This document shows, one piece after another, positions 1-33,965 of a stretch of 39,992 bases of DNA. Made by a program: the position numbers and the translations under genes. Origin of the DNA: a virus; UHGV virus genome UHGV-0186582. One strand, written 5' to 3'. The notes under the pieces were generated by a model, which saw only the letters and a program-made list of their open reading frames with translations, had not been told where the DNA came from and searched no databases. Positions within the stretch are counted from its first letter, which is position 1. Each line of letters begins with the position of its first letter.

Positions 1-2
1 AG

Positions 3-119
3 CTGACGCAGCCAGAAAACACCCGACTTAACGCTGTGCTGGATTATATTGACGCGGTGACGGCAACAGATACCAGCACCGCACCGGATGTCATCTGGCC
101 TGAACTGCCGGAGGCGTAG
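3..119 (+). CDS. Partial CDS, C-terminal 38 codons of a second tail fibre assembly protein (Tfa'), convergent with tfa
   Basis: Frame 3 reads ...NAVLDYIDAVTATDTSTAPDVIWPELPEA then TAG at 117-119; this mirrors the C-terminus of the minus-strand Tfa (NAWLDYLDALELVDTSSAPDIEWPTPP); 5' end outside window. Confidence 0.5.
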   Translation: MTQPENTRLNAVLDYIDAVTATDTSTAPDVIWPELPEA

Positions 120-534
120 GCCATTCAATATCTGGAGCACTGGAGGTATCAACCAGTTCCAGGGCGTCCAGATAATCCAGCCACGCATTAAACTCCGATT
201 TTTCAGCATCATTAAGGCGTCCAAGTGCCAGCTTTGATGGCCACTGTTTGCCATCAATATAGCCGTTAGCTGCGCTAATACGGGACTGTTTCTCCCTCTC
301 GGCGTTGGTTAATTCTTCCTCCTTCGTTGGCGGTGGCAGTTTTTCCCATGCCGGTAGGCCGTCGCTCCCAGCAACTCGCCGCAACCATTCGGAATTACGG
401 TCCTGTGTGAACTCAAAAAACAAATCATCGGAGACATCAACAATGTCCGATAAATCCCATCCAGCCTTTTCATACAATGGCAGTTCAGGCTTAAAGAAAA
501 ACGCATTGTTTTTGGCGCTATACACATAAGACAT
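91..534 (-). CDS. tfa: Tail fibre assembly protein (Tfa family)
   Basis: 147-aa ORF directly downstream of the tail fibre gene; Tfa-like C-terminal motif. Confidence 0.7.
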   Translation of the reverse strand: MSYVYSAKNNAFFFKPELPLYEKAGWDLSDIVDVSDDLFFEFTQDRNSEWLRRVAGSDGLPAWEKLPPPTKEEELTNAEREKQSRISAANGYIDGKQWPSKLALGRLNDAEKSEFNAWLDYLDALELVDTSSAPDIEWPTPPAVQAR

Positions 535-536
535 GA

Positions 537-1343
537 TTAGTTACCTATCGCAATGTAAAAAACTCTTTCGCTTGCATTGTTTCCGGAATCACCAGAATTG
601 CCAGACCATGCAATATCCATGAAAGTAAAACCGTTTTTGTTGACGCTGTTTTCTCGAAACATTGGCCCAAAAAGCCAGTAGTTTTGAACGTAAGTTTGAC
701 CAAATACGATACCGAAACACTGATTTGGAAACGGTGTAGAAAATACTTTGTCGCCGGTCATAGTTACATAACCGTAACGGAAGTGTATTCCGTTAGGCAT
801 TCCAACGCCGCCTGATGGCAGGCTCCAGGCGCTCATGTCTGGAATTTGGCCCGCCCCAGTGCCCACATCCCTTTTCGCCGCTTCTCCTAAACCAAGGTAT
901 GTGAGAATGTCGGCAATAGTGCTTTTACCGATAATGTCTCGGCCAACAGAAGTTAAATCAGTCTGCGCTGCTTTATCAGTTCCAGTGAAATACGGGAGTT
1001 TATTTGCACCTGTTGCGAGCCCAGCTAATGCCGACAGCGTGGCATCAAGTGCCTGGAAATCCTTCCCAAAAGCGGTTCCCATTTTGGAGATAAAGCCGTT
1101 CAGGTCACCATCATCAAGCACGTCCAGCCCACTTTTGTTGGCTGTGTACTGCGCAAGCGCTGCCGCGATAAAGCTGGCTTGCCGAATAGCTTTGTTGACC
1201 TGTGCGCTGGATGCTTTACCTGCCGTAAACCCTGAAAGCAGAGCCGGAAGTGCTTCCCAGTCAGCTTGTGAGGTGACGTTAGCGTTCGGATCAAGCGCGA
1301 AAGGTTTAAAGTTGTTTATTGCCATTAGAGTATTGTCCCCCAT
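537..1343 (-). CDS. Side tail fibre protein (P2 gpH-like distal part)
   Basis: 268 aa; MAINNFKPFALDPNANV N-terminus and LSALAGLATGANKLPYFTGTD...VGRDIIGKSTIADILTYLGL motif as recalled from P2 H / Stf fibres. Confidence 0.7.
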   Translation of the reverse strand: MGDNTLMAINNFKPFALDPNANVTSQADWEALPALLSGFTAGKASSAQVNKAIRQASFIAAALAQYTANKSGLDVLDDGDLNGFISKMGTAFGKDFQALDATLSALAGLATGANKLPYFTGTDKAAQTDLTSVGRDIIGKSTIADILTYLGLGEAAKRDVGTGAGQIPDMSAWSLPSGGVGMPNGIHFRYGYVTMTGDKVFSTPFPNQCFGIVFGQTYVQNYWLFGPMFRENSVNKNGFTFMDIAWSGNSGDSGNNASERVFYIAIGN

Positions 1344-2005
1344 GCTCCAACATCGAACCCGCCGATGTATTCGTTATCCATATCAAACCCAAAGAATTTA
1401 GAGCCCTCGGATGGTGCTTCTACCGAAGGCGTTTCAACATCACCGGCCCATACGCCAGCTGCTTTAACGGTGAGATAGCCCTGTTTGATAGCGGCAATCA
1501 GTTCAAGAGACACATCAGAAATATCAGTCTCGGGGAATACCCAAACCGATATCGTCATGTCCTGGTTGTCGACGATCTGCATTCGCAGCCCGGAGCCTGC
1601 TGTTGCCGCGTCAAGAATTGCCGGAAGCGAATCATTCCGTCCGTCCCAGTTATTAATCGCAATCTTCGCTTTAAGAATGACACGATAAGTTTTATCGCTG
1701 AGATACATGTATCCTGAATCAGGATCGTATGGTCCCTGCCATACCCCCTGATCATATCCAAGCCCGTCGGTATCCCAGCTGAAATAGACACCTGATATAG
1801 GCTGGCTGACAACACGGCTACGCCCGATCCACAATCCCAGAATGTCAAGTTGCACACCAACCGCAGAGTCAATATCAAATGCAGTAATCAGCCCTCTGGT
1901 GGCAGCCGCAACATCAATAAGCGGCCGGGTCATCAGATCAACATGTGCAAGAAATTTAGGTTTGGTGACGTGGTAGTTCGTGATTAGTTCGGTGTATTTG
2001 CTCAT
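1325..2005 (-). CDS. Tail/baseplate protein (Mu gp48 / YmfQ-like)
   Basis: 226-aa ORF between baseplate J-like gene and tail fibre; assignment by position and family recall. Confidence 0.5.
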   Translation of the reverse strand: MSKYTELITNYHVTKPKFLAHVDLMTRPLIDVAAATRGLITAFDIDSAVGVQLDILGLWIGRSRVVSQPISGVYFSWDTDGLGYDQGVWQGPYDPDSGYMYLSDKTYRVILKAKIAINNWDGRNDSLPAILDAATAGSGLRMQIVDNQDMTISVWVFPETDISDVSLELIAAIKQGYLTVKAAGVWAGDVETPSVEAPSEGSKFFGFDMDNEYIGGFDVGAWGTIL

Positions 2006-3201
2006 GACTCCACCGTTATAACGATATTTTCCGGGGTACAGGACGCAGATTCGTTGTATCTGATATCAATGTTTGATGACGACAAAGCCCCCGGGGATTT
2101 CCCAATCGTCAGTTCCTGAATATCGTAATAGCGTGCATTCCCGCCACTCACCACGCCAAGATTCGCCGGTGAGTAAATGCGACTTAAAAGGACCGAATCA
2201 CCAATCGTCAGACTATTGATATAGTCGGAAATAGCCTGCTGGATCTGCTGCCCTATCTGTGAGGTATAACCCGTAAAAACTTTTAATTTAATCCGGGCAT
2301 AAACAGGCACATCACTGGAACGCGAGAATTTGATTACATGGGGATTGCCGTATTTATCCGGAACCGTAACGGATGTTGTACCGTGAGTGGCTGTCCCCTG
2401 GCCTTTATTCCCTCTGATAGCCTGAGCAATATCCGTCACATCACCGCCATCCACAATTACAGCAACAGAGTGTGGCGGTAACCCGTTGCCGTCCTCCGAA
2501 CCAGTATCGTTTTCATAGAGTTTGTGGCGGGTTACACCGGTAATATTAGAAACAGCACCATCCAGTGCTTCAAATGGGGTTATTGATGGCAACGCAACAC
2601 TTTGCGACTGGCGGATACGTAACTCCGAATCAGTTTCTGCCGGAGTGCCCACAGTGGCTGCAGCAGGATTGGTTACCGAAACCCAGCCACGGGTTGGCGT
2701 ATTAATTTCAGTGATAGTTCCAGCCAGCGCCGCCACTGCGCCACTGACGGAACATGTTGCGGTCACCATCACTGTACCATCCACTCCGACCACCACTGAA
2801 GCAGGCAAACGCCATATCACATTATTACTGTCTTTCACGCTGCCATTAATGATGGTTGTTCCGGTAGTTCCTGTAAGAAGCAAATCAACCGTAGAGTTCG
2901 TCGCGCCTTTACGTGAAATACCATTTATTTTCACGTTACTGGTCAGTGCAGCCCCATAGCCGGTTGCCGGTGAAAAACAGTTGTAGACAGTTATCGCCGT
3001 ATTATTGGCATCATGAATCGCCAGCGCCATCAGAGCCACCATCTGGCCGTCTTTGCTGTCCGGTTCGAGGTAGGCATCACTGCCATAAATCTGCTGAAAA
3101 TAGCTAATCAGGGTGCTGAGTATCGTCTGATAATCAGGCGCACTGATCCCCTCCGCGGTTACCTTTGCAGATAAACCGAGAGAATCAAGGTTCAGAGCCA
3201 T
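2002..3201 (-). CDS. Baseplate J-like protein (Mu gp47-like)
   Basis: 399-aa ORF, overlapping starts/stops with neighbours; position in Mu-like baseplate order. Confidence 0.6.
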   Translation of the reverse strand: MALNLDSLGLSAKVTAEGISAPDYQTILSTLISYFQQIYGSDAYLEPDSKDGQMVALMALAIHDANNTAITVYNCFSPATGYGAALTSNVKINGISRKGATNSTVDLLLTGTTGTTIINGSVKDSNNVIWRLPASVVVGVDGTVMVTATCSVSGAVAALAGTITEINTPTRGWVSVTNPAAATVGTPAETDSELRIRQSQSVALPSITPFEALDGAVSNITGVTRHKLYENDTGSEDGNGLPPHSVAVIVDGGDVTDIAQAIRGNKGQGTATHGTTSVTVPDKYGNPHVIKFSRSSDVPVYARIKLKVFTGYTSQIGQQIQQAISDYINSLTIGDSVLLSRIYSPANLGVVSGGNARYYDIQELTIGKSPGALSSSNIDIRYNESASCTPENIVITVES

Positions 3202-3554
3202 TACGCCTCCGATGTAACAGTCGTTATTCCATAAAGAGTGTCGATTTCAGCGGAAAACATGACACGTCGGGTCGTGGTATCCACCGTCGTATTGAAAGAG
3301 AGGATTGATTTAACGCCCCGCGTTTCGAGGATGCGCTTACGGATCGCCAGGTTGTAGGTTTCCGGCTTCTGCTTACCGAGTACGGACTGGATCCACGGAG
3401 TCCCCTCGGTGGTGTCGAGAAACCATTGCCCATACCACAATTCGAATCGCGTTTTTACCGCCTGCGCCACGGCCTCCGGTGAGTTAATCAGCCAGGTGTC
3501 ATCACCGCTGCCAAAGGTATAATCGCCATCGGCGTCTTCACGTCTGTATCGCAT
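3201..3554 (-). CDS. Baseplate wedge protein (gp25/GPW-like, Mu gp46-like)
   Basis: 117 aa; size and position between spike and J-like gene. Confidence 0.5.
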   Translation of the reverse strand: MRYRREDADGDYTFGSGDDTWLINSPEAVAQAVKTRFELWYGQWFLDTTEGTPWIQSVLGKQKPETYNLAIRKRILETRGVKSILSFNTTVDTTTRRVMFSAEIDTLYGITTVTSEA

Positions 3555-4306
3555 CAGTTCACCCCGTCTGTGTTGCTTCCGCCTCGCTGAACCCCGCCGT
3601 GCGTGTGAGTATCATCAATTGACTTGCCGTTAGCTTTAACGGTACCGATAAACTCGACAGCGCCGGTGATTTTGGATGCAACTCCAGAAGCAACAGACCC
3701 CACCATTCCACCCAGCCAGGACAGTAGCCCGTGAATGGTTACTTTCGCCGAGAAGTCGGCCAGCGGGGTAACTACATCCAGACCGCCAGGCGCTACGATT
3801 TTAATTTTCTGCGTATCCGGATTAAGGTCGATGTACGTACTTCCATCAACACTTCGAAGCTGCGCCGACGTGGTGCTGACATTCTTAATTTTGTTGGGCT
3901 GAGATATTTGACCCACTGAGCAGGTGGCGTCGGACAGGTCATGTATGCGGTCGTCGACAGGTTCCTGCACTCCACCGTTTTGCCAGAAGAAATCAATACA
4001 GCGGTCTTGAAACTTAAGTTCGCACTCATCGCCGGGGCTCACCGGCAACGTTAAAGTAACTCCCCCGGCCGTTGGGAATACCACGGGAACATCCACCAGC
4101 AGCGGGTAAGGTTTTGTCACCCGGTTACCATCGTTATCGATCTCAACGTAACGGATAGCAGGCTGCACAACCGCCGTAACCGCGTCAGAATCGAATGACT
4201 GAATAATGCCAGGCAAAGCGACTCGGATCTGGTTCTTTGTTGTTTCCCGTTCAGATTTGAATGTTTCAGCAAGGTCGCCGCTGCGGGTCTGGTCAGATAC
4301 TGCCAT
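3554..4306 (-). CDS. Baseplate spike / assembly protein V-like (Mu gp45-like)
   Basis: 250 aa; ATG at 4304-4306 with GGAG RBS upstream; position in baseplate cluster. Confidence 0.5.
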   Translation of the reverse strand: MAVSDQTRSGDLAETFKSERETTKNQIRVALPGIIQSFDSDAVTAVVQPAIRYVEIDNDGNRVTKPYPLLVDVPVVFPTAGGVTLTLPVSPGDECELKFQDRCIDFFWQNGGVQEPVDDRIHDLSDATCSVGQISQPNKIKNVSTTSAQLRSVDGSTYIDLNPDTQKIKIVAPGGLDVVTPLADFSAKVTIHGLLSWLGGMVGSVASGVASKITGAVEFIGTVKANGKSIDDTHTHGGVQRGGSNTDGVN

Positions 4307-4320
4307 TTAGTAGGCTCCAG

Positions 4321-4348
4321 AAAGCAAAAAACCCGCCGGGTGGCGGGT
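4321..4348 (-). terminator. Rho-independent terminator closing the inserted cassette
   Basis: Minus strand reads AAACCCGCC-ACCC-GGCGGGTTTTTTGC immediately after the TAA stop (4349-4351) of the 138-aa gene. Confidence 0.6.
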
Positions 4349-4765
4349 TTATGAATCGTAGGTTTTCAATTTTTCGAGTTCATCAGGAGGAAGTTCTATG
4401 AAGGTTTCCTCTGCTAATTTTATCAGCCTGGGAAGCATCGAATCAGCTTGCTGATGAGCGTTTGGGCTGATGATTGCCAATATCTGATAGTGTTCATCGA
4501 TATAAAGATGCTGAGCATATACCAAAAAATTATCACATGTCCGTTCACTCAGAGATGCTTCTGGAGGCCAGGGTTTATCGCCAGGTAGCTTTAAGTGAAT
4601 TTTCCTGATGTTGGCAGCCATCGCATCATAGTTACGTTCAAAACCGCCTAACGAACCAAAACACCAGAACTGGGAACCCTTTGAAATATAATCGGCAAGC
4701 ATTTGAGCATACTTATGTGCTGCAGCTAAATGACGCAATTCTCCCGTTATACTGACTTTTGCCAT
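4349..4765 (-). CDS. YafO-like toxin domain protein (putative mRNA interferase-type toxin)
   Basis: 138 aa; motifs LADYISKG, KIHLKLPGDKPWPP, SERTCDNFLVYAQH, YQILAIISPNAH, LIKLAEETF align with recalled E. coli YafO (TADFISYKRDG, HIHLANENNPFPP, SRTNDEAHLVYCQG, WLLIAILKPEPH, KIGKMAEAF); from memory, not an HMM search. G+C about 40 percent, below flanking tail genes. Confidence 0.5.
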   Translation of the reverse strand: MAKVSITGELRHLAAAHKYAQMLADYISKGSQFWCFGSLGGFERNYDAMAANIRKIHLKLPGDKPWPPEASLSERTCDNFLVYAQHLYIDEHYQILAIISPNAHQQADSMLPRLIKLAEETFIELPPDELEKLKTYDS

Positions 4766-4766
4766 G

Positions 4767-5339
4767 TCACATCCATTTAGGGGCGTCGGCTCCCAGCATC
4801 TTATGCGATGTAGAGATCAGTTCAATAGCCTCTTCACGGGTAACATTATCTGACAAGAGTTCAGCCAGGAAAGGCTGCGATTGCCTAACTTCAGCGGCCA
4901 ACTGAGTTGCAGTGTTCTCGACGGCGGTCAACGCACGAACATATTTGCGTTTTAATGGGCGCAACATTTGCAGATGGCCTTGCCACATAGGGGACCTTTC
5001 CGCTTCAGAGAACATATCCACTAAATGTCCTTTAGCATTTCGGCATGCCTTGGCAAGACCTTCGAGATGGGATAAAAACCCGTCCGGAAGCTCATCAACA
5101 ATGATTCTTCCATTTCGAAAAGCTTCGAGATGAGACATGCCTTCCTTCGCGGTATTTTCGATTTCTTGAGCGCGTGCAGCAATCGCGGTACAACGACGAA
5201 ATGCCTCTTCAGCATCTAATCGTTGTGGCAGTTCACAAGCATTAGAGATCAGGGGTTTGAAAGCACCGTTAACAGCTTCCTGAACCTGATTCATTTGTTG
5301 TGTAATTGTTGCCAGCGCAAATGCGTAGCTAATCGCCAT
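4767..5339 (-). CDS. Hypothetical ~190-aa protein, upstream partner of the YafO-like gene (candidate antitoxin/immunity); no recognised family
   Basis: Stop TGA is 1 nt from the downstream ATG (TGA-C-ATG); likely start is the ATG at 5339 with GAGGG RBS (ORF track starts at TTG 5345); no resemblance to YafN/Phd-type antitoxins that I can see. Confidence 0.5.
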   Translation of the reverse strand: MAISYAFALATITQQMNQVQEAVNGAFKPLISNACELPQRLDAEEAFRRCTAIAARAQEIENTAKEGMSHLEAFRNGRIIVDELPDGFLSHLEGLAKACRNAKGHLVDMFSEAERSPMWQGHLQMLRPLKRKYVRALTAVENTATQLAAEVRQSQPFLAELLSDNVTREEAIELISTSHKMLGADAPKWM

Positions 5340-5352
5340 ACCCAATCCCTCT

Positions 5353-5367
5353 GTCGTTTTAAACGAC
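5353..5367. promoter_or_regulatory. Perfect 15-bp palindrome GTCGTTTTAAACGAC in the AT-rich region upstream of the cassette; candidate operator
   Basis: Read directly; lies just upstream of the RBS of the 190-aa gene inside a 162-bp AT-rich intergenic region (5346-5507). Confidence 0.3.
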
Positions 5368-5507
5368 TATACACCACTTATTCAAAGTTAGCTGAGCGCT
5401 AAAAGTTCGCAAAGTTTAGTGATCATGCAACCACCTAGCAAGCGATAAAAAATCATTATTTAGTGAATGTGAACAAACTCAACACTATGCAGAAATGTAA
5501 CTTTTGG

Positions 5508-5861
5508 TTAACCATCAACCTTTTTACACGGGAAAGAACCGATGATTTTCGGCGCGTCCATGCTGTTCTGCAGTAGCTGAACGTTCAGAAAGCGCGTTTC
5601 GGTACCAGGGCGACGAATGTATTCAAAGCCGTAGTTGTTACCGTCTTTGGCAGGCATGAGGCCCATGTCTGCCTTCATACCGTTGCCGCTACCGAGCGTT
5701 TTAATTTTCTGGGAGGTAACAGTCTCACCATTAATCCTGAACAATGAATCAGGAACCAACTCTAATTTATAACCACCACACTGAAGCGTGACGCCGCCAG
5801 GATTCGCGGCAAATGCCGAACCTGAAAGAAAACAGAGTCCGATAACAATCCACTTTTTCAT
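5508..5861 (-). CDS. Small secreted protein with Sec-type signal peptide; unknown function
   Basis: 117 aa; N-terminus MKKWIVIGLCFLSGSAFA-ANPGG; two Cys in mature part; 2-nt gap to upstream baseplate gene. Confidence 0.5.
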   Translation of the reverse strand: MKKWIVIGLCFLSGSAFAANPGGVTLQCGGYKLELVPDSLFRINGETVTSQKIKTLGSGNGMKADMGLMPAKDGNNYGFEYIRRPGTETRFLNVQLLQNSMDAPKIIGSFPCKKVDG

Positions 5862-5863
5862 TC

Positions 5864-6928
5864 TTATCCTTCCCTCTGCAGAGACGAAGTAGAGCGGAGA
5901 TCCGCCGCGCCGCGCGCTTCACACATCATGTCCATGTACCACGCCTGGCCCCTTGTGTCGCCAGTGTACATAATCCCGCGCACAATATAAACGCCATCTG
6001 TTGCGATGCTGGCAGGCTGCGCCGTGGTGCCGCTGAGCGTGATATTTCCGTCCGTGTTCTGGTCGGTGATCTTCCCACCAGCCATCGCGATATCATTGTT
6101 CGACAGCGCGGTGCGGTACACGGAAGCCTGATCCAGCTGAATAAGCCCGTTAACCCGGATGTTCGGATTAATGAGCGCACGGACGTTTACGCCGTTACCG
6201 ATGGTCTGCTGCGGCATGCCAATAAGCCCGGTAGCACTGTTGAGCACAATCGCTTCGTGAACATATTCGTTATTCGCCACCATCTGGCGCTGACCGTCCA
6301 CGAATTGCCATGTTGCGCCACATTGCCCGGCTACGTTATCCATTAGATGCCGCGTCATGCCAAAGAGCACCCGCCCCCGGGGGAATACAGTAGCAGGCAT
6401 TTCAGGCGTCAGGCCTTCGGTCGCGCCTTTGGCTTCGAAGTCTTTCATCAGCGCACGGTTCACATCAGCGACCGTGTAACCGGCAGCCAGCGTCTGTGAG
6501 GTTATACTGGTGGCAAATGCCAGATCCGTATCTGCTGCCTGAATCAGGACATAGGAATCAATAGGGCTGTCTTTTCCTGTGACCGAGTAGCGAATTTCTC
6601 CGCTGAAAATCAGCCCGTAGTTGCGGCCATCACTCTGGCCCACATCTGCCGCGTCGACTTCGCGCACGGTCCCGACGTCGCTTGCCGCCACCTCAGGCGC
6701 GATACCGTCGTAACCGGCAATCAGCCGCACTTTCGAAAACTCCTGCCCGGTAATTCGGTTCACAGTATCTGCCGAAAGGTTATAAATTTTGATAGTCCCT
6801 ACCCGGGACGCGCTGCTGATGTTGAACCAGTCGATCGTAAAGGTGACTTTGAAATCACTTAGCTCAATTCCCTGACCATTCCCGTCCACAAGCTGCAGCT
6901 CGAAATGTCTCATCCAGTTCTGTGACAT
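5864..6928 (-). CDS. Tail/baseplate hub-like protein (Mu gp44-like position)
   Basis: 354-aa ORF in tail cluster; assignment by position. Confidence 0.45.
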   Translation of the reverse strand: MSQNWMRHFELQLVDGNGQGIELSDFKVTFTIDWFNISSASRVGTIKIYNLSADTVNRITGQEFSKVRLIAGYDGIAPEVAASDVGTVREVDAADVGQSDGRNYGLIFSGEIRYSVTGKDSPIDSYVLIQAADTDLAFATSITSQTLAAGYTVADVNRALMKDFEAKGATEGLTPEMPATVFPRGRVLFGMTRHLMDNVAGQCGATWQFVDGQRQMVANNEYVHEAIVLNSATGLIGMPQQTIGNGVNVRALINPNIRVNGLIQLDQASVYRTALSNNDIAMAGGKITDQNTDGNITLSGTTAQPASIATDGVYIVRGIMYTGDTRGQAWYMDMMCEARGAADLRSTSSLQREG

Positions 6929-6930
6929 GC

Positions 6931-7233
6931 TTACTCCGTTGATACCAGTAAATGACTGCGGCCGCCCAGATCAGTTTTCGTGGGATAATCCTGTGTGTTG
7001 TCATCGCAGACCACCACCAGCTTAAAACCAAGTCCCATACAGGCGTACTGCGCCAGCAGATCAGCGCCAGTGACGAGAGGAATACCGGAGATTACCGGCT
7101 CCCCTCTGTCGTTCTGCAGGTCCATAATCCAGTAAAGATCGCGCCATATGATGCTAATCTGCCAAGTGACACCACCCAGGACGATGCTGAACTGCTGGTT
7201 GTCCGCTGTCAGCGGAATTTCCTGAATTATCAT
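6931..7233 (-). CDS. Hypothetical tail protein
   Basis: 100-aa ORF tightly packed between tail genes. Confidence 0.4.
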   Translation of the reverse strand: MIIQEIPLTADNQQFSIVLGGVTWQISIIWRDLYWIMDLQNDRGEPVISGIPLVTGADLLAQYACMGLGFKLVVVCDDNTQDYPTKTDLGGRSHLLVSTE

Positions 7234-7820
7234 TAGCCGCCTCCCAGTAATGACGCCACGTTACCAGTGATGCTTTTCAGCAGTGAAGTATCTGGAGGCT
7301 TTGTGGTTTTGTTGCCGCTGTTCTGTACCGCCGACGTGCTGGCCCCTTCCTTCATGTTGGTTTTATCCGCGACGGTAATCTGCTGTGTCCGGGAGATAAT
7401 GACCTCCCTCAGGGTGAGGACGGCGGACAGGACGTTTTCGGTTGTCTTGTCCGTCGTCACTTCCAGCGCCCGGATCAACATGTTGCTGTACAGCCGTTTA
7501 CCGGTTACCACATCGAAGGGGATACGGATTTCCTGCAGATCCAGTAGCTCCTGATACGTCTGCTGAGGACTCAGGCCGAGCATGCTGGTAGCCGTCAGAT
7601 TACTGGCAAAATCCAGCAATGCACCGCCACCGGCGAAACCAACCTCCATCACCACTTCTGACGGTTTTTTATAGGCATGATCAGCGACAGCGGCCCCGAC
7701 CTCTACCGGATGCTCTGTTATTTCAAGCATATCTGTATGCTTCTCTGAAATAACAACACTGGGAACAATCATTCCTATTTTTCTGCTCTGCTGATGAAAA
7801 AGTGTAGAGAGAATATCCAC
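7233..7820 (-). CDS. Hypothetical tail protein
   Basis: 195-aa ORF immediately downstream of tape measure gene. Confidence 0.4.
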   Translation of the reverse strand: MDILSTLFHQQSRKIGMIVPSVVISEKHTDMLEITEHPVEVGAAVADHAYKKPSEVVMEVGFAGGGALLDFASNLTATSMLGLSPQQTYQELLDLQEIRIPFDVVTGKRLYSNMLIRALEVTTDKTTENVLSAVLTLREVIISRTQQITVADKTNMKEGASTSAVQNSGNKTTKPPDTSLLKSITGNVASLLGGG

Positions 7821-9829
7821 TAACCCACCCTCACCTGATTACTTCGCATGACCTGAGCATTTGCAGACTGTTGCCGACGTGCAACCTCATTACCGACAGC
7901 GTGCGGATCTCCGCCACCGTAAATGTGGTAAGTATTTTGCTGGTTAACCTCTGTCACTTTGCCACTAATTCCTGCCACGGCAGCCTTATTAATCAGCTCT
8001 CGAGAATAGATATTTCTTCCATTTTCATGCTGGATAATACTGCTCATCAATGCTGACATGGTTTGCGGATCGCTCATATTCAGGGTAGCCCGGGGATCCA
8101 CTCCCAGACGTTGCGATACAGCCCTGATATACGCAGTTGTGTTGTTATTATCAGACGCAGGTGCCCAGGTAGAGATAATTTTCTCCACGCTGTTTATTCC
8201 ACGTCCGGCGTACAACATTAACTGACGAGCAAGAGCCCGTAATCCATCAAAAGCAGTTTCAAATCTGGCAAATCGCCCGCCCGGGCGTTCAAGAGAAGCC
8301 CCTGCCTGACCAGCAAAATTAAGGTTTCCCGGATTGTTATTCCGTTCTCCTCGTTTCGTAGCCTGTGCATATTGTTCCGGCTCATCATCACCAAACCAGC
8401 CGCGTACCGTCCGGCCCACGCTGCGAGGATCGAATCCCCAGTGCTCTTTAATCCAGTCGGCAGTACTGTTAGCGCTGTCTGTAACCATCGGCATCGCTGA
8501 CGGATTTTCGCTGCCCTGATTAAGTATCTGTTTGCTGATGCTGACGGCATCAGCCCAGCGGCCATCTTTGATAGCGTTGAGCAGGTCGGCGATCATGTTC
8601 AGCATTTTGCTGAATTCGCCCATCTGGTCGATGAAGTTGCTGAAATCCCACTTCAGGGACCATGATTTGGGGTCAATATTGAGCAGTTTCGCCAGCGCTT
8701 TCGCCAGTTCATTAACAGACCCTTTCAGGTCACGAACCATCTTCAGCGCGGCATCGACCTCCGGCTTCCACTTACCCCAGTCAATCAGGCTGTCGCCGCC
8801 TTCCTTCCAGGTCTGATAGTCCTCCCACAGAAGGGCAATCCCCGCCGCCAACGCGGTAATGAGGCCAATCGGCGACATCCAGAACGTACTGTTCAGAATG
8901 CGCAGTGCAATCGTCAGCGCGCCAAACAGCGAGATGAGCTCCCGCGTTTGCTTATCCAGCGATTGCCACCAGGTGATAAGGCCTGATGTCCCCTCAATCA
9001 GTCTGAAGAACAACCGCCCGATAATATCCCCGAGCGCCAGAATGCCTTTTATGGCTTTCGTCAGGGTCTGCTCGATACGCGGGAAGTTGTCCAGGATATG
9101 GCGGCGCAGAGTGTCCAGCGAACCCGCAAGCCCACCCGCAAGATTAGAGCCGATTTTGTCACGGGCCATGCCTGCCATCGCGCCAAACTCACGCAGGGAG
9201 GTCATAAATTTGTTGGAGCTTCTGGCCGCCTCGTCAGCATTGAAGCCGATAGCTTTCGCCATTGCGCTGTACTGCCCGGAGAAGCCACCCACACCCCGGC
9301 GCATCGCCATAAGGGTATTTTCGTCAATGCCCAGCATCTGCGCATACTGGTTAGCCCGGTAATACGGCATGCCGCTGAGCTTCTGGCCTACACCTGTAAA
9401 AATAGCGGCCATGTCACGCATGTTACCGCTGGCATCACGGGTCTGTACGCCCAGGCGATTCAGAAAACCTTCTGCACCGGGATTGTTACGAATAAACCGG
9501 GAGAGGCTTTCCAGAGAAGATCGCGCAGCGTCCACGCTGCCGCCAACCTGCGAAACCGCATAGCCAATAGACTGAATTCCCTGGACTGTCGCGCCGGTGC
9601 GCTGTGACGCCCAGTAAAGATTATCCAGGCCGGAGGCAATCTTAGCCGTAAAGGCCACCACAGACAGTGCAGCTCCTTCAACGGACACCCCCATTTTGAT
9701 GACATTTGCAGTTGTACCGGCGAGGACAGAACCGAACTTTTTCGCGCCTGCCTCATCCACACTGAAGCCAAGCGAGACGAGGAAATCTTTAATAGTTTCA
9801 GCGTTCATTATCCTCTCTCCATTTCTCAA
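7820..9829 (-). CDS. Tail tape measure protein
   Basis: 669 aa, long helical/Gly-Ala-rich protein following tail chaperone; ATG overlaps upstream frame stop (ATGA). Confidence 0.75.
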   Translation of the reverse strand: MRNGERIMNAETIKDFLVSLGFSVDEAGAKKFGSVLAGTTANVIKMGVSVEGAALSVVAFTAKIASGLDNLYWASQRTGATVQGIQSIGYAVSQVGGSVDAARSSLESLSRFIRNNPGAEGFLNRLGVQTRDASGNMRDMAAIFTGVGQKLSGMPYYRANQYAQMLGIDENTLMAMRRGVGGFSGQYSAMAKAIGFNADEAARSSNKFMTSLREFGAMAGMARDKIGSNLAGGLAGSLDTLRRHILDNFPRIEQTLTKAIKGILALGDIIGRLFFRLIEGTSGLITWWQSLDKQTRELISLFGALTIALRILNSTFWMSPIGLITALAAGIALLWEDYQTWKEGGDSLIDWGKWKPEVDAALKMVRDLKGSVNELAKALAKLLNIDPKSWSLKWDFSNFIDQMGEFSKMLNMIADLLNAIKDGRWADAVSISKQILNQGSENPSAMPMVTDSANSTADWIKEHWGFDPRSVGRTVRGWFGDDEPEQYAQATKRGERNNNPGNLNFAGQAGASLERPGGRFARFETAFDGLRALARQLMLYAGRGINSVEKIISTWAPASDNNNTTAYIRAVSQRLGVDPRATLNMSDPQTMSALMSSIIQHENGRNIYSRELINKAAVAGISGKVTEVNQQNTYHIYGGGDPHAVGNEVARRQQSANAQVMRSNQVRVG

Positions 9830-10040
9830 TGCGCCGCTGGTTATCCGCTTTTACCGCCAGATGGTCATTCAAGAGAGCAATGTCATACAAATCGACAGAG
9901 CCATCTTTAAGTGCTGTATAGGGAATTAACCCGGCGTCAACCGGATTGAGAAGGTAGGACAGCCCGTCCGGCAGGCTGTTAAACGTCAGCCCTGTTGCAG
10001 GCTCTGTGTCGTGCTGGTAAGGGGTGTAGGCAAAAAATTT
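9826..10040 (-). CDS. -1 frame extension of the tail assembly chaperone (G/GT-like programmed frameshift product)
   Basis: Slippery heptamer A-AAT-TTT (minus strand, plus 10034-10040) about 17 codons before the chaperone stop; the -1 frame stays open ~70 codons to a TGA overlapping the tape measure ATG. Confidence 0.45.
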
Positions 10041-10438
10041 CCCAGTGAATCGGCGACCACCCGCGCCACCAACTGCAGCATGGTTAGCAGGTCGATATCA
10101 TCGAACATCAGCTGACCGCTGTTGAATACCGGCGTCCATCCGTCCATGTGCTTACGTGACACTACGGCCAGGCAAGGATGAATAATCGCGTTGGTATCTT
10201 CTTCAGTCAGGGAAGACAGTTCCTCAGCGATACGCGGGAGCATGGTTTCAAACACCGGTTTTAACTGCTCGAATTTCACGGTGTCGATTTTGCCGTCAGC
10301 AGGCAAACATGAGCGAATGCTCCCGAAATCTGACATCATTCCCGCCAGTACCGGCAGAAGTTTGCGGGTCACTTTCAGCTGGTCAAAAACGCTGAGTTTT
10401 GCCACGCGATATTTCATGCCTTTGATTTCGAATTCCAT
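9986..10438 (-). CDS. Tail assembly chaperone
   Basis: 150-aa ORF between tube and tape measure; slippery site near 3' end. Confidence 0.55.
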   Translation of the reverse strand: MEFEIKGMKYRVAKLSVFDQLKVTRKLLPVLAGMMSDFGSIRSCLPADGKIDTVKFEQLKPVFETMLPRIAEELSSLTEEDTNAIIHPCLAVVSRKHMDGWTPVFNSGQLMFDDIDLLTMLQLVARVVADSLGNFLPTPLTSTTQSLQQG

Positions 10439-10441
10439 GTA

Positions 10442-10882
10442 TTAAAACTCCCCGAGAACCTGGTCAATCTTGCCGCAGTCAAACACCCACGGCATCGTAT
10501 TACCGGTTTTAGCGTTGGCATTATCCGGTTGTTTCTGGAACGCAACACTACGTGCCGTGATGATGTCGCCGCTGACCTTGTTTCGGATCACAATAACGTT
10601 ATTCCCCCATGTGGCAGAAGACTGGCTCTGTGCGTTATACGCCAGCGACAATTTTTTATTTGTCGGTGATGTCTTCAGAAGGTTAACGGTAATCGTCCCG
10701 CTTTTATCTGCATGGAGACTGTGCATCACTTCGCCATCAGCACCGATGGTCATGGTGTTTTTAGGACCGCCCATCGCAACCACAATCCCCTCTTCAGAAC
10801 TTGCAGAACCGTACCCGAGGTCAATCGAACCGGTCGGGCCGGTCAGCGTCGCAGTGACATCCATAAAAGAATAGGTAGACAT
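10442..10882 (-). CDS. Tail tube protein
   Basis: 146 aa, directly after sheath gene. Confidence 0.55.
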   Translation of the reverse strand: MSTYSFMDVTATLTGPTGSIDLGYGSASSEEGIVVAMGGPKNTMTIGADGEVMHSLHADKSGTITVNLLKTSPTNKKLSLAYNAQSQSSATWGNNVIVIRNKVSGDIITARSVAFQKQPDNANAKTGNTMPWVFDCGKIDQVLGEF

Positions 10883-10892
10883 TCACTTCCCC

Positions 10893-12038
10893 TTAGCGAA
10901 CAACGTTAATCTGTACGTCAGCGTAATGAACCGCACCTGCAAGTTTTATTGCAGCCTGAATCACCGGAGCCTTACGGGCTTCACGTTCTGATTGTGCCTG
11001 TTCATCCAGCGGCTGGGCGTATACGTAATAACCTTTGGGCAGTGTGTCACCTGATGACAACTGACCAAGGTCGCCCCCGTTCCATACGCCCGGAGCAATC
11101 AGTCCATTCTGAACGGCCTGATCCAGTGATTTTTCAACACTTGATAACAGTCGGGTAATACCGGCTTCAGTCTGGGGTACTTTCGTGGTGCTGGTATAAA
11201 GCAGGTTATAGAGGTTGGTCTGCACATAATTCTGTAACCAGTCCAGGCCGTGGCGTTCATCAAAGAAATCGCCGTTAGCCATCACTCCCTGCTGGAGGAT
11301 AGCCGTATCATTTTGGTAGTACACGAATACATTGCAGTTTTTTGCATCAAGTGCCGATGCCTGGCTGACTGTCAGTGTTTCATACCCGACACCCGGCTCC
11401 TGCTTAAACTTGAGCGTAATCGCGGTATTACTGCCATTGAAATTAACCGTGAATGCCCGGCCAAATGCAGATAACGCAGCGTATTTATTACCCGATGAAT
11501 ACTGAATAAAACTGCGTGAATATCCGGCGGTTTTCAGTTTTGATGCCAAATCATCGCTGGATGCAGTCTGTAGGCATTTCTCATCGCTTGTCGTAATCGC
11601 CAGAATACGGCTTACAGAAGAGGATTCGATCGCCGCAGCCACTTTCAGCCAGTCTGCATCCGGAATATCTTCATCGCCTGCAATCCCCAGCCCATACCAT
11701 GAAGTATAATCGAGCATGGCATTCACAGCCTGCTCCAGCGTCTCAGGCGTGGCCTGTTCGCTGTCTCCCTTCGTTTTCACCCAACGACCAACAAAAACCT
11801 CCTGAGGTTTCGGTGATTGTGAGAAAAACACCTGCGCAGCTTTATATTCTGGTGATTCCACGCCAAAATCTTTTCCAATATCTTCCGCGGCAGAATAACG
11901 ACGAATGCGCTCACTTACCGGAATGATTGTGGACGGGCCGAGAATGAGTAATGCACCAAAATTTCGCCCTGATGCTGCACGCGGCGACATGATCACATCA
12001 ACATTAACAACGTTTGATACAGGCAAGCCCTGTGCCAT
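10893..12038 (-). CDS. Tail sheath protein
   Basis: 381 aa preceding tube gene; contractile-tail gene order. Confidence 0.6.
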
Positions 12039-12041
12039 AGC

Positions 12042-12608
12042 TTAATCTCCGAAAAAGATGACTGGTGCTTCCACCAGCGATTTAATACCGTACTCGCGCA
12101 CAACCTTCCGGCGCAGACGCACCGTCATATCGTAGCGGCGGACCCATTGCTGATTAATAAGTTCAGGGAAGGGAGTCAGACCTGTGTAATCGCCAAGAGA
12201 CAGCCCCAGCGCATTCAGTGCTGCGTTGTTCTGCGGTACAGATATACCGTCACGAAACCGGGACGCATACACCATCCCAGCCGGACCATAAAACGAAGCC
12301 ATACACTCAATCGTTTCATGCCGCCAGAGCTGAGAGCCATCATCGGTCTGTCTGGTGAATGCCGGACTGTCATCACCTGACCATCCGATAACCCCAAACG
12401 CACACCAGTTCGTTTCAACCGGTAGCAGTGGCGGCTGCTCTTTCTGCCAGCGCGGACGAACCATCCCGGCAGACAGACCGGAAACGTTACGCATCCACTG
12501 GCTTAACAGCCTGTCGAGCGCTTCGTCATAATCCGGATCGCCACTGGTTGGTATTAACCATCCGCGCTCTGTACTGGTGTTATTGCTCAACCGGAGTTCC
12601 CCCATCAA
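12042..12608 (-). CDS. Hypothetical head-tail joining/neck protein
   Basis: 188-aa ORF between head and tail modules. Confidence 0.4.
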   Translation of the reverse strand: MMGELRLSNNTSTERGWLIPTSGDPDYDEALDRLLSQWMRNVSGLSAGMVRPRWQKEQPPLLPVETNWCAFGVIGWSGDDSPAFTRQTDDGSQLWRHETIECMASFYGPAGMVYASRFRDGISVPQNNAALNALGLSLGDYTGLTPFPELINQQWVRRYDMTVRLRRKVVREYGIKSLVEAPVIFFGD

Positions 12609-12969
12609 ACGGCATCAACTCACAATGCGCCTGAACGAATCCGGCCCCATAAGCTGTATACGGGTCGACGAAGGTCACACGATAATCACGGCCCTGATAC
12701 GTCACGATATCGGCATCACGGCCAGTCTGTCCCTGCGTCAGTCGCTCAGTCGTCACAATCAGAATTGCACCACTGATTACCTGCCCTGCCTGCATACGGC
12801 GGTTTTCCAGAGAGCGATCAACAGTTACGACTCCGGCAAACTGCTTTTTAACTTTACTGTCGCTGCCGATCCCGTCCTCATCCACCGTTTGCACTCGGCG
12901 TGTTACCCACAAATTGAAGTCGCAAAAATCGGGGTCAAAAAGCACATCTGTTACATCAAGAGTCGGCAT
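12580..12969 (-). CDS. Hypothetical head-tail adaptor protein
   Basis: 129-aa ORF, overlaps neighbours by short distances. Confidence 0.4.
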   Translation of the reverse strand: MPTLDVTDVLFDPDFCDFNLWVTRRVQTVDEDGIGSDSKVKKQFAGVVTVDRSLENRRMQAGQVISGAILIVTTERLTQGQTGRDADIVTYQGRDYRVTFVDPYTAYGAGFVQAHCELMPFDGGTPVEQ

Positions 12970-13510
12970 TTTTATCCCTCACAACATGGGTAATCGCTCT
13001 GCGATATTGCCCGGTGTCGATTAGCGGTTTCACCAGATCGGTTCCAGGAGACTCACCAGCAGCTCGCCGCGCAAGTTCCGCTTTTGCCCCTTTGCGCCAT
13101 CGACGTGCACGGGCTTCAACAGTGCTGTCAGCAAGCGGCGTAAAGCCGGTAATAGTCATGTAACGCCTGACGCCATTAGCGGCCAGCGTTCCGGCGCGGT
13201 TGAGCGCTCTTTCCGCCCCCGCCGCATTTCCATCAAGCGCAGCCTGCGCCGCTGCTTTGAGCTGCGGCACTGTCTGTCCCTCTACCGATTTAACGCCGGG
13301 GGTCAGGTGCGGGCGTGGGGGGATGTTTTGCGCTGGCGAGCCGTATTCGTTGACGTAACCGATCCCGGCATTACCAAACGGAACATCCTCACGCTCGCTG
13401 TCTGCTTCCGGGATACCCACCAGCACTTCTTTTTTACTGATGGATTTGAGCGCATCCAGAATGGCCTGAGCGTTATCCACCCTCGTTGTTACACCGCTTT
13501 TGAAGCTCAT
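12956..13510 (-). CDS. Hypothetical head completion protein
   Basis: 184-aa ORF in head-tail connector region. Confidence 0.4.
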
Positions 13511-13914
13511 AGCTGGCGACCGCCTGCGCCAAACATCGTGATCAACTGATAAAATTCAGCGCCATATCGGGTGTTATTCCAGAAACCTGCATCAGGATTC
13601 AGCGTCGCGCTGGTGTCATAGCTGACGCTTACCTTGTCAACAGACTTAGAGGATTGAACACCATTGGTTGAACCGCCCGGGCCGCCAACCAGCATTGCCC
13701 GGCTGTCTGCCGCCCATAGCGTCATGTAGTGAGCCACGAACAACCCGGCAAAGTACGGAAACAACTTTTTGCCGGTGACGTTTTCGCTCAGCAGTTCATC
13801 GGCCAGATTCAGACGAAACTGGATTTGCGCTTCGGGATATTTGGCAGGGTCAGCAAACTGCGGGAAGTCGCGGCGAAAATCACTTACCGCTGGCAGACTT
13901 TGATTCTTTGGCAT
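13507..13914 (-). CDS. Hypothetical head protein
   Basis: 135-aa ORF downstream of capsid gene. Confidence 0.4.
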
Positions 13915-14101
13915 TTTTTACCTCGTTACGCGCGTCTGTGGCTTTGCCAACGGATACTTCCGCGTGCGCACGAGTGAACCAGTGCGTGGCAACGTCTTCC
14001 TCCACTGCATGACGGCCTTTAACAAACTCGCGCCGAGAACCGTCGGGAAGCGTGAGCACAAACGGGGTATGTACGTGTATTACTGCATTATTTTTTGCCA
14101 T
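13880..14101 (-). CDS. Small hypothetical head protein
   Basis: Internal ATG ([10 protein letters not shown]...) with AAGGA RBS between capsid stop and next gene; the longer 150-aa track ORF would overlap the capsid gene. Confidence 0.35.
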
Positions 14102-14141
14102 CGGGTCATCCTTAATGGCCCCGCCAGGGGCCATGTGGCTG

Positions 14142-15083
14142 TTAAATGCCATCAACGTACGAAATGGTTTCTTTGTACACTGGCTCGACTGCACCCAGCT
14201 TGCCGTAGTAAGTGACGATCTGATACAGACCGCGATACTGCACCGGCACGCTCTGAAGCGGAACCAGCGGGTAGCGGACGTATTTTTTATCGTTGGTGTA
14301 CGCAACCATGCGATCCTTATCCCCCACACCACGGCCTTTCAGCCATTTAACCGCGCGGATATTCAGCGGAACACCGTTCTGGTGATAGCTGATGGTGTTG
14401 GTCTGAAGGTACGTCAACAGGGACTGGTTACCAGCAGATGAAACGATGATGCTGGACAACAGAGCAAACTGCTCAGGTGGGATCAGCAAATCACTCGGAA
14501 CCACAGAGTAACCGGAAGCGGCCCACGCATCAGACAGCACCTGGTTAATGCTTGCGCGGATTTCGTCCGGTGTTGAGGTTGCCCACGTTTTGGCAGCGTT
14601 GTTGACAGGAACACCGTTCAGGGTAACAAGGCCTTTCAGGTTTAATGCGGAATCGCCAACATACACCTGTTCATCGTTATCCATCTGCCATTTCAGTTGC
14701 ATCCCGTCATACTTCTGCGTATCAATCGGGCGTCCGACCTGCTGAGCAGCCTGCAATTCTATGACCGTCCAGCCAAGCTCCATCCCCCACAGGTTCAGCG
14801 GGTTACCGGATTTGCCGATATCCACGTTCACGCCAGCAATAGCGGTTGAGTCTTTGCCTACCCAGTTTTTGCCATTCGGATTTGCACCAGTACCCGCAGC
14901 GGCGAAGCTGGTATTCGTCCAGCTGGAAATGTCATCTGCGATAGAGACATCTTCACGCAACTGAATATCGCGGGTCCAGGTGTACCCCACCAGTGGCAGG
15001 TTCAGCGTCTGGTCGAGTCGCTCCAGCTCCCCGATGAGAAAGGCACCAGAGCTGTCAACGGTTGCCTGATCAAAAGTAATCAT
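14142..15083 (-). CDS. Major capsid protein
   Basis: 313 aa, position after scaffold/decoration genes. Confidence 0.6.
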   Translation of the reverse strand: MITFDQATVDSSGAFLIGELERLDQTLNLPLVGYTWTRDIQLREDVSIADDISSWTNTSFAAAGTGANPNGKNWVGKDSTAIAGVNVDIGKSGNPLNLWGMELGWTVIELQAAQQVGRPIDTQKYDGMQLKWQMDNDEQVYVGDSALNLKGLVTLNGVPVNNAAKTWATSTPDEIRASINQVLSDAWAASGYSVVPSDLLIPPEQFALLSSIIVSSAGNQSLLTYLQTNTISYHQNGVPLNIRAVKWLKGRGVGDKDRMVAYTNDKKYVRYPLVPLQSVPVQYRGLYQIVTYYGKLGAVEPVYKETISYVDGI

Positions 15084-15094
15084 TCGTCTGTTCC

Positions 15095-15601
15095 TTAAAT
15101 CTTCCAGGAAATTTCTGCATTGCCGTCAGCATCACCGGCACCTGTGAATTCAGCGTTGGTCAGCACCACGTTTTTGCCACTGACTGACGTGGACATGAAT
15201 CCACCCAGCGGCACTTTGATGGATTCATCAGTGGAGACGACAACGTATACCGGGTCGCCTTTTTTGATGGTGCTGGCATCAAAATCAGAACCGAGATTAA
15301 CGGTCACGTAGCCACGCTTCATGGCGTCGCCCGGGAAGTTCTTGCCAGTCCCCACCTGGCGAACCATGTCCGGCTGCGAAGTGGTCGGATAAGGGCGCAC
15401 GTAGATCCCCTTCACCTTGTCTGCGGTATCACCATCTGCCAGCGGCACGAAAAAACCGTCATCATCGTATTTACCAGCCAGGCCATAGGCAGCGAAGGCG
15501 TTATCGGATTTAAGGACCACCGGTTCGACGGTTAAGTCCTGCGGGCGAGAGACAGCCCCGGCAATGCCAACAGGCATCCGGTACAGAAATACATTATTCA
15601 T
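15095..15601 (-). CDS. Head structural protein (possible decoration/cement)
   Basis: 168-aa ORF between scaffold-like and capsid genes. Confidence 0.4.
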   Translation of the reverse strand: MNNVFLYRMPVGIAGAVSRPQDLTVEPVVLKSDNAFAAYGLAGKYDDDGFFVPLADGDTADKVKGIYVRPYPTTSQPDMVRQVGTGKNFPGDAMKRGYVTVNLGSDFDASTIKKGDPVYVVVSTDESIKVPLGGFMSTSVSGKNVVLTNAEFTGAGDADGNAEISWKI

Positions 15602-15604
15602 TTT

Positions 15605-16825
15605 TTACCCTTTACGGTTTGCCCAGAATTCAGCGTTTTGTTTGTTCAGGGAAGCGATACTGGTCATGCCCATGTTTAGGCGCTGTGCATCGCCGGTGGT
15701 GGCGCGGGTGTTTCGCCCTTTGGCAATCTCAGACACGGCATTAAACGCCATGTCGACCGATTGTTTCGGCAATTTGCGGATATCCGCATCACCGACTATC
15801 TGGCGAACCAGCGTTTTGTCAGCAGAAGCCAGAACCTCGCGTTTGAACGCGGTCGGTTTCATCTTACGGCTCAGATCGATACCCGGAACGATAACTTCGG
15901 CACGCCAGGCTGAGTCACCAGTAATCGTGGTTTCCTCTTCATCGTCCTCGCCGTCACCGGTTGGATTATCGTCAGGCTTATTATCGTTATCGCCCGTCGC
16001 ATTTCCTTCCAGCTTAGCCAGCAGGGATTTCAGTAATGTTTTGAGGTCATCATCACTGTCGCCGGTAGGACCTCCGCCCATCTCTGGTGCTTTGTCCGGT
16101 AGTGGTTGCTGCGGGGATAGGTTGATGTTGAGATTAACGCCCTGCGGCAAATCCCCCTCATCTCCTGTAACCGATGCGGGAGCCGACTCCACCAGTTCGT
16201 TCATGGTGTCGGCATCTCCTGTCTTGATGGCTGCACGCATGCGGTTCCACCAGTTTTTCTTTTGATTTGCCATTGTGTCTCTGTCTCCAATTGCACAACG
16301 ATTTCCGGCTCTGCCTTTGGGGACAAGAGCCACATGGTTTCCGGTAATATCGACCTGCTCGGCTTTACCTGGCTCGGTCTGCTCATACTCCGCGTCATAG
16401 CCGCACGACACTTCGCGCAGGCCATCTTCGATAAGCTGAATGGCGCTTTCGTCTTTGACGATAAGGTCAGCCAGCATCAAATCAGACTGCTCACCCGTCC
16501 CGCGCCGGACATTCTGGAGGTGCCCGACAGCAAGCTCTTTCCAGTTCTCGGGATTTACCAGCCGCACATTCCCGTTTTCATCTTCAGGATGCAGGATCGT
16601 GATGCTCATCCCTTCGAATGAGGCAAGCGTGGCCGGATGGAATACCTGCTCAGGAGAACGTGTGACGACTATTTCACCGAACTTATCGGGTTTCAGTTTT
16701 GGCAGGTCATCAGCACCATAGAGCTGCTTACCTGTTCGTCCTATCGGCACGTCTTTGCACAGCAACGAGCCGTCAGCCAGCTGATAGCGGGTTTCCCCCA
16801 GCCGGGTATTGAAAAAATATTTCAT
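15605..16825 (-). CDS. Scaffold / prohead protease-like protein
   Basis: 406 aa with acidic low-complexity C-terminal half (DSDDDL...GDGEDDEEE) typical of scaffolds; position. Confidence 0.5.
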   Translation of the reverse strand: MKYFFNTRLGETRYQLADGSLLCKDVPIGRTGKQLYGADDLPKLKPDKFGEIVVTRSPEQVFHPATLASFEGMSITILHPEDENGNVRLVNPENWKELAVGHLQNVRRGTGEQSDLMLADLIVKDESAIQLIEDGLREVSCGYDAEYEQTEPGKAEQVDITGNHVALVPKGRAGNRCAIGDRDTMANQKKNWWNRMRAAIKTGDADTMNELVESAPASVTGDEGDLPQGVNLNINLSPQQPLPDKAPEMGGGPTGDSDDDLKTLLKSLLAKLEGNATGDNDNKPDDNPTGDGEDDEEETTITGDSAWRAEVIVPGIDLSRKMKPTAFKREVLASADKTLVRQIVGDADIRKLPKQSVDMAFNAVSEIAKGRNTRATTGDAQRLNMGMTSIASLNKQNAEFWANRKG

Positions 16826-16839
16826 GTGTTACCTGCGAT

Positions 16840-20553: not shown

Positions 20554-20555
20554 AC

Positions 20556-24008: not shown

Positions 24009-24038
24009 ATTATGGCTAAATGGCTAATTGCATGTCAA
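24009..24038 (-). promoter_or_regulatory. Late promoter pR' candidate (TTGACA-18 bp-CATAAT) overlapping the 3' end of the Q-like gene
   Basis: -35 TTGACA (rc of 24033-24038) and -10 CATAAT (rc of 24009-24014) read on minus strand; stop of upstream gene at 24016-24018. Confidence 0.45.
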
Positions 24039-33864: not shown

Positions 33865-33965
33865 TGGCGACCGCGAAGGAATGCGGGTATGCCTTAATTT
33901 GTCCCGAGTCGAAGTATTAAATCAGCGTTATTTCCTTGGGTCATGTCCATTCTGAGAACAATCAT

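Follow-up and report, generated by a model that had tools for sequence, protein, structure and literature searches.

A convergent tfa pair and a split fibre gene at the edge of an E. coli prophage point to a Din-family invertible segment

At the left edge of a 39,992-bp stretch of viral DNA (UHGV virus genome UHGV-0186582, the whole of which we call the window), two tail-fibre assembly (tfa) genes run into each other tail to tail, and one of them is cut off by the edge itself. An initial annotation took this pair as the signature of a Gin/Pin/Cin-type invertible segment, raising the question of whether the window holds part of a tail-fibre switch and what should stand beyond position 1. A crossover site, the architecture of related loci and the occurrence of the same segment in both orientations all support that reading, and we consider it very probable that window positions 1-907 make up ~48%, the right-hand part, of an invertible tail-fibre segment of the Din family (Gin/Cin/Pin/Hin-type) in an E. 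coli prophage. The mechanism is already known at textbook level, and the module is very common in E. coli.

Converging chaperone genes in a Brunovirus-like phage

The plus strand at 3-119 translates as LTQPENTRLNAVLDYIDAVTATDTSTAPDVIWPELPEA followed by a stop codon, and these 38 residues align to the end of the Pfam Caudo_TAP profile (PF02413, positions 95-131 of 131; E 4.3e-10, 40.3 bits, with a curated cut-off of 22.1 bits), as expected of the C-terminus of a second Tfa-like protein. The fragment (tfa', 1-119, plus strand, last 38 codons and stop, frame from base 3) is identical at 35 of 38 residues (92%) to the C-terminus of the 200-aa annotated TfaE of E. coli EH10-18-47; extended by 40 nt from an identical ENA contig, the tfa' end matches that of E. 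coli ECONIH5 and FAM21845 at 159 of 159 nt. Facing it on the minus strand, the ORF at 91-534 encodes a complete 147-aa Caudo_TAP protein (E 9.4e-25, 87.7 bits, above the curated cut-off). This is tfa in its expressed orientation, an analogue of Mu U and YfdK by both its domain and the annotation of its relatives, and we place both genes inside the invertible segment. The tfa' stop codon, at 117-119, falls within the final codons of the minus-strand tfa, so that the overlap of 91-119 is as originally described, 29 nt long.

An identical 29-nt overlap is annotated throughout the related loci. Of 5426 complete E. coli genomes, 2336 (43%) contain window positions 1-125 at 80% identity or more, and 18 contain them at 100% identity, with two annotated tail-fibre assembly genes spanning the equivalent of 1-125 in all matches listed and up to seven such cassettes in a single E. 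coli genome. The convergent, overlapping tfa pair, one of the defining traits of Din segments, is thus confirmed as a real feature, far above chance. The pair also contains an imperfect inverted repeat of 28 nt (28-55 and 164-191, 79% complementary), present likewise in related locus L001, which arises because both genes encode the same C-terminal motif, LDYIDA or LDYLDA, on opposite strands.

The window as a whole is a nearly complete temperate phage with the chassis of a SEN34-like (Brunovirus-like) myovirus and a lambda-type integrase. Read along the minus strand from 6928 towards 91, its genes are a baseplate hub-like protein (5864-6928), a YafO-toxin moron pair (4349-5345), the spike (3554-4306), a 117-aa sheath-initiator-like protein (3201-3554), Baseplate_J (2002-3201), DUF2612/wedge-1 (1325-2005), the 262-aa tail fibre (537-1325) and tfa. 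Farther right lie an antiterminator Q (24016-24534), an S24 repressor (30111-30761), an ERF recombinase (33936-34571) and, on the plus strand, an integrase with Arm-binding and Phage_integrase domains (38922-39992) whose stop codon ends on the window's last base; a tRNA scan found none. Positions 1148-23192, which span the tail, head and terminase genes through to the lysis genes, match the induced E. coli phages vB_EcoM-611R5 and vB_EcoM-606R2 at 94.6% identity over 71% of a 25-kb query, and positions 891-20571 match Salmonella phage SEN34 (genus Brunovirus) at 82% DNA identity over 66% of the query. An identical integrase protein adjoins ybhC (pectinesterase) in many E. coli chromosomes, including that of O157:H7 EC4115 (CP001164), which would make E. 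coli the host and att-lambda the integration site. The integrase protein is listed in 25,569 blocks of the sequence collection.

A crossover site within the fibre gene

Inside the fibre gene, at 882-907, lies a Gin/Pin-type crossover site of 26 bp, TTCTCCTAAACCAAGGTATGTGAGAA. Its layout, TTCTCCTAAACC-AA-GGTATGTGAGAA, consists of two inverted 12-bp half-sites flanking an AA/TT core at 894-895, which is the dyad with a 2-bp core that characterizes Din segments. The half-sites match TTCTCNNAAACC at 10/10 and 9/10 positions, a score of 19/20; at the laxer threshold of 14, shuffled windows average 0.16 hits. No other place in the 39,992 bp resembles the site at three or fewer mismatches (expected number, 0.00). 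As a check on the search, the relaxed half-site pattern TTNTCNNAAACC, applied with no constraint on the core, picks out exactly two places in the G region of phage Mu, TTATCCAAAACCTCGGTTTACAGGAA and TTCCTGTAAACCGAGGTTTTGGATAA, which are gixL and gixR at the two annotated boundaries of the G segment. The initial annotation had pointed to 1200-1343 as a place to search for a 26-bp site; it was right that one exists in the window and wrong about the place, as the scan of the entire window found no crossover site in that interval and the actual one lies 300-450 nt deeper in the fibre gene.

The site divides the fibre gene into a constant and a variable part, with the boundary at 894/895. The constant N-terminal part, Sc (896-1325, minus strand), lies outside the invertible segment, and the variable C-terminal part, Sv (537-893, minus strand), is fused to it within the segment. 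In the fibre reading frame the site encodes LTYLGLGE, with the core TT at positions 2-3 of a leucine codon, and the codon phase at the core is identical in the alternative exons of related loci L001 and L003. Protein alignment places the break at the same point: conservation among Brunovirus-like fibres, that of SEN34 among them, extends over residues 1-148, and the sequences are unrelated beyond LGLGE. At the DNA level, megablast homology begins at 879-889 for most E. coli relatives, at 891 for SEN34 and at 881 for Yersinia phage YP3. For a range of E. coli, Salmonella and Yersinia phages, similarity to the window is interrupted at 881-898, at the crossover site; matches to the cassette, in turn, terminate at 895-900. 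The Sc DNA is 94.9% identical to Sc of ECONIH5, where it is joined to another exon, and the Sv sequence recurs in four other genomes (L010-L013, discussed below) as a silent ORF that lacks an N-terminus and adjoins a recombinase gene. The C-terminus of Sv has a weak similarity to a gp53-like domain (Pfam PF21882, E 3e-4, under the cut-off).

The fibre gene starts with the ATG at 1325 and has a product of 262 aa according to the gene call on an identical contig. The list of ORFs also gives an ATG at 1343, and an exact protein look-up of the resulting 268-aa ORF found no record because the called gene is the shorter one. A scan of 1-2200 for promoters and terminators found nothing above shuffled expectation, which fits read-through from a late operon and is uninformative by itself. 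In the fibre gene of SEN34 (L008, 2463-2488), one half-site, TTCTCACATACC, and a TT core lie at the constant/variable boundary, and may be the relic or the precursor of a crossover site.

The missing half of the segment and its two orientations

The left flank of this particular prophage is accessible for a short distance. Window 1-8534 recurs at 100% identity in the 65.9-kb ENA contig k119_106715 (L004/L040), which reaches 40 nt farther left than position 1 before it ends and lengthens the Tfa' fragment to 52 residues; for the invertase, partner site and alternative exon of this prophage, we therefore rely on what we infer. A Logan contig from ERR260203 (L041), which matches window 866-3100 at 100% identity, breaks off 16 nt beyond the crossover site. 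Both contigs came to light through look-ups of the Tfa and DUF2612 proteins. Among GTDB species-representative genomes, a scan for an exact 50-mer had no hits, and none of 23 IMG/VR contigs with an exact 50-mer is the source of the window, as they share with it only positions 1-190 and 856-909. Both contig ends fall at the borders of these two blocks, which are shared by many prophages. We rejected the contig ends as proof of inversion, since branching of the assembly graph at repeats explains them equally well; they may stem from repeats or from mixed orientations, and are compatible with inversion heterogeneity. SEN34 was rejected as a model for the left flank, as it is without the module.

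Related E. coli loci with enough flanking sequence all carry the missing pieces beyond tfa': an alternative fibre exon without an N-terminus, a partner site in inverted orientation and a gene for a serine invertase, as the initial annotation had anticipated. In APEC37 and PEC122, which have the window's chassis integrated at a tRNA-Arg gene beside intS, the order is recombinase, alternative fibre exon, tfa', convergent tfa, fibre, DUF2612 and Baseplate_J, and the gene order in vB_EcoM-611R5 is the same. The alternative exon is annotated in APEC37 and PEC122 as ‘phage tail protein, missing N-terminus’, the recombinase in PEC122 as pinE. Each related locus with enough sequence contains two sites and no more, in inverted orientation and 1.77-1.91 kb from each other; the first is in the fibre gene and the second 55-80 nt from the recombinase gene. 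The alternative exon encodes a phage tail-collar domain. The 23 IMG/VR contigs, examined separately, agree with this layout: the window's first 50 nt are preceded, wherever the flank suffices, by a TT-core site at a distance of 953-1019 nt and followed by an AA-core site at ~880-1090 nt, and the eight contigs in which both outer flanks can be read all have a serine recombinase gene next to one of the sites.

The recombinases of the relatives possess Resolvase and HTH_7 domains with the invariant Ser9 and the other catalytic-core residues. They form two clades, 72-77% and ~50% identical to Mu Gin, and the PinE protein that adjoins the window-type cassette matches the solved structure of Gin (PDB 3UJ3) with E 4.4e-93. 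Most are full-length, and three are defective, being truncated to 315 nt in L007 and frameshifted in L011 and L015. Both clades (L001, L010 and L012 as opposed to L002, L003, L013 and L014) adjoin the same kind of cassette with the same inner half-site. The outer half-site beside the recombinase scores 5-8/10 and is much less conserved than the half-site in the fibre gene.

If the segment inverts, the same cassette should occur in either orientation between conserved flanks, and this is what we find among different genomes. Five complete genomes contain the window half-cassette (1-898), at 95.5-96.7% identity. The copy in EH10-18-47 (L003) is 96.7% identical and occupies the expressed position, like that in the window; in MLI104K1, TL20, 23CRST032 and 07B21CPO001 (L010-L013) the half-cassette is silent and directly beside the recombinase gene, and a tfa' of the window-edge type is expressed downstream of a full-length fibre. 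Comparison of L003 with L011 by blastn reveals colinear flanks (87.8% identity on the pin side, 96.5% on the Sc/ymfQ side) around an internal 1.83 kb that is reversed. The alignments overlap at L003 5055-5074 and 6881-6900, placing the breakpoints inside both 26-bp sites, and we read this rearrangement, at the level of sequence, as the footprint of a site-specific inversion.

When L001 and L003 are inverted in silico at the core dinucleotides, the resulting fibres are uninterrupted and in frame, and end in ...NIAFNYIVRAA. The expressed fibre of ECONIH5 (L015) has this same ending. ECONIH5 combines the window's chassis with a tfa' in the expressed position that matches the tfa' end at 159/159 nt, and therefore illustrates how the window prophage would appear in its other orientation. 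Inversion of the fibre segments of e14, Mu and P2-like prophages has been measured directly in E. coli cultures (PMC4272514), and tail fibre and tfa genes are enriched among programmed inversions across bacteria (PMC9881135).

A two-state switch, its rivals and the exchange of its parts

These observations suggest a model for how the locus works. Late transcription of the minus strand would proceed leftwards from the baseplate genes into the fibre gene, whose constant part (1325-896) is joined at 882-907 to Sv (893-537) and followed by the chaperone gene tfa (534-91). The tfa' gene and the alternative exon, Sv', would stay silent because they have no start and no promoter. A serine invertase encoded just outside the segment would pair 882-907 with an inverted partner site, predicted to lie ~950-1020 nt beyond the left end of the window, and cut at the central AA/TT, flipping ~1.84-1.90 kb. 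Inversion would fuse Sc in frame to Sv', with its tail-collar-type tip, and bring tfa' into expression, and this swap of fibre tips would presumably alter receptor and host specificity. In this copy of the segment, we infer that the invertase and partner site are intact, that the reaction is Fis- and enhancer-dependent, and that switching alters the host range. The enhancer would be expected in the 5' part of the invertase gene, outside the window, where coding constraint would confound any sequence conservation among relatives. Past the contig end, ~1.0 kb of segment and an invertase gene of ~0.56 kb should follow. The model accounts for the mosaic fibre tip of this prophage and for the breakage of assemblies at the segment, and it predicts a phage able to present two alternative receptor-binding tips. 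It would also mean that genes called ‘hypothetical protein’ or ‘phage tail protein, missing N-terminus’ beside recombinases are silent fibre exons, not pseudogenes.

With its 26-bp dyad site, its fibre gene split at that site, its convergent chaperone genes and its occurrence in both orientations, the switch is a two-state one that groups with the Mu G, e14 P and P1 C systems. In the Mu G segment (Gin/gix; S-U versus S'-U'), too, the constant part of the fibre lies outside and two opposed C-terminal parts lie inside, each followed by its own Caudo_TAP chaperone gene, with the chaperone genes convergent, the 26-bp dyad sites built of TTNTCNNAAACC half-sites, and the serine invertase gene immediately outside one site. 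The two differ in size (3 kb in Mu, ~1.85 kb here), in the core of the site (GA/TC in gix, AA/TT here) and in the junction of the chaperone genes, as U and U' are 28 nt apart in Mu whereas the tfa genes here overlap by 29 nt. Their fibres and chassis are unrelated, the chassis here having a Brunovirus-like baseplate with DUF2612/wedge-1. The e14 P segment of E. coli K-12 (PinE, stfE/tfaE/ycfK) is closer in scale at ~1.8 kb; the invertase by the same cassette is annotated pinE and the second chaperone tfaE, and the window half-cassette is 96.7% identical in a prophage of this kind (L003). However, in e14 and the prophages with Mu/SfV-like tails the constant fibre part and the baseplate genes upstream of the site are of another tail type, YmfQ/gp46/V, in contrast to DUF2612/Baseplate_J/spike here, and homology between e14-type prophages and the window ends at the crossover site.

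The P1 C segment (Cin/cix), p15B Min and the multi-inversion systems of P2-like prophages share with the window the recombinase family and the logic of a fibre tip with its chaperone. In the P2-like prophage L013, where the window cassette is silent, tail protein I and a tail-collar fibre are followed by recombinase, sheath and tube. Unlike these systems, the window has a single site, and the relatives built on its chassis are simple switches with two sites rather than shufflon-like arrays. Some IMG/VR contigs are more complex. Among those sharing the tfa' 3' end, four crossover-like sites are present in L022, three sites together with two recombinase genes in L026, and sites spaced 2.6 kb apart in L029; in L038 the tfa' end is duplicated in direct orientation, its two copies 1834 nt apart within a site-to-site span of 3.7 kb. 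These four contigs may represent shufflon-like multi-inversion systems. SEN34 is like the window in the N-terminal part of its fibre, constant up to ...ADILTYLG, and in the gene order of its baseplate, tail and head, but it lacks an invertase, has a single fibre and a single tfa, and at the corresponding position retains only one good half-site. Since SEN34 is the type phage for this chassis, the module is optional in the Brunovirus-like group.

Three other readings of the locus deserve consideration. The frame at 3-119 spans only 38 codons and is cut at the window edge, as a chance open frame might be; the Caudo_TAP match above the curated cut-off and the 92-100% identity to the ends of annotated full-length tfa genes refute this, leaving it a negligible probability. 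Alternatively, unrelated tail modules or prophages might abut here by chance, or the assembly might be chimeric, with no inversion system involved at all. The identical contig stops inside tfa', whose 3' end is a repeat found in 2336 genomes, and misassembly at such a repeat is conceivable. Yet the 29-nt overlapping junction occurs in thousands of complete, closed E. coli chromosomes, the crossover site lies where it is expected in the fibre gene, and in every locus with enough flank tfa' is followed by fibre exon, site and invertase and by no foreign tail genes. The closed-chromosome junctions, together with the inversion between L003 and L011, effectively refute this reading, which we regard as extremely improbable.

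A reading closer to our own is that the segment is a fossil, in which the invertase has been lost, truncated or frameshifted and the fibre is locked as Sc-Sv/tfa unless another Din invertase acts in trans. The defective recombinases beside related cassettes in L007, L011 and L015 show that such decay occurs, and the public contig ends before the position at which this copy's invertase should lie. On the other hand, most relatives have full-length recombinases with all invariant catalytic residues, and the window's own crossover site, with a score of 19/20, is an almost perfect dyad. The invertases Gin, Cin, Pin and Hin complement one another, so loss of the invertase in cis need not lock the segment, and in E. 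coli genomes with up to seven cassettes invertases acting in trans are conceivable. A locked switch therefore seems to us rather unlikely, although far from negligible, and we favour an invertible segment as the reading of positions 1-907.

Beyond inversion, parts of the segment may also move between phages. Homology of unrelated cassettes to the window stops at ~184-190, near the inverted repeat at 28-55 and 164-191, and the conserved block thus looks like a second recombination joint at which half-cassettes are exchanged. Exchange of modules at such joints has long been proposed for Din systems, and the presence of the same cassette in Mu/e14-like-tail and P2-like prophages agrees with the modular exchange of fibre tips, itself known for many years. 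We give about even chances to the idea that half-cassettes, each a fibre tip with the N-terminal part of tfa (~190-856), are swapped as units among three unrelated contractile-tail chassis, the Brunovirus-like, Mu/e14/SfV-like and P2-like ones, with the crossover site and the overlapping tfa 3' ends as the joints. If this is true, the breaks in the assemblies, one inside tfa' and one 16 nt beyond the site, would reflect a segment that switches actively in a gut community.

A further variable spot lies within the tail operon, between the spike and hub genes. The moron pair at 4349-5345 (minus strand) comprises a YafO-family toxin of 138 aa (Pfam E 4e-17) and, upstream of it, a 192-aa ORF for which a Pfam search gave no match. 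APEC37 has the same YafO pair, and PEC122 and vB_EcoM-611R5 carry other genes there, so that this position appears to be a variable insertion hot-spot inside the operon. At the same hot-spot, a 117-aa ORF (5508-5861, minus strand) that has no Pfam match begins with a signal-peptide-like N-terminus, MKKWIVIGLCFLSGSAFA, and its product may be a secreted or envelope moron protein.
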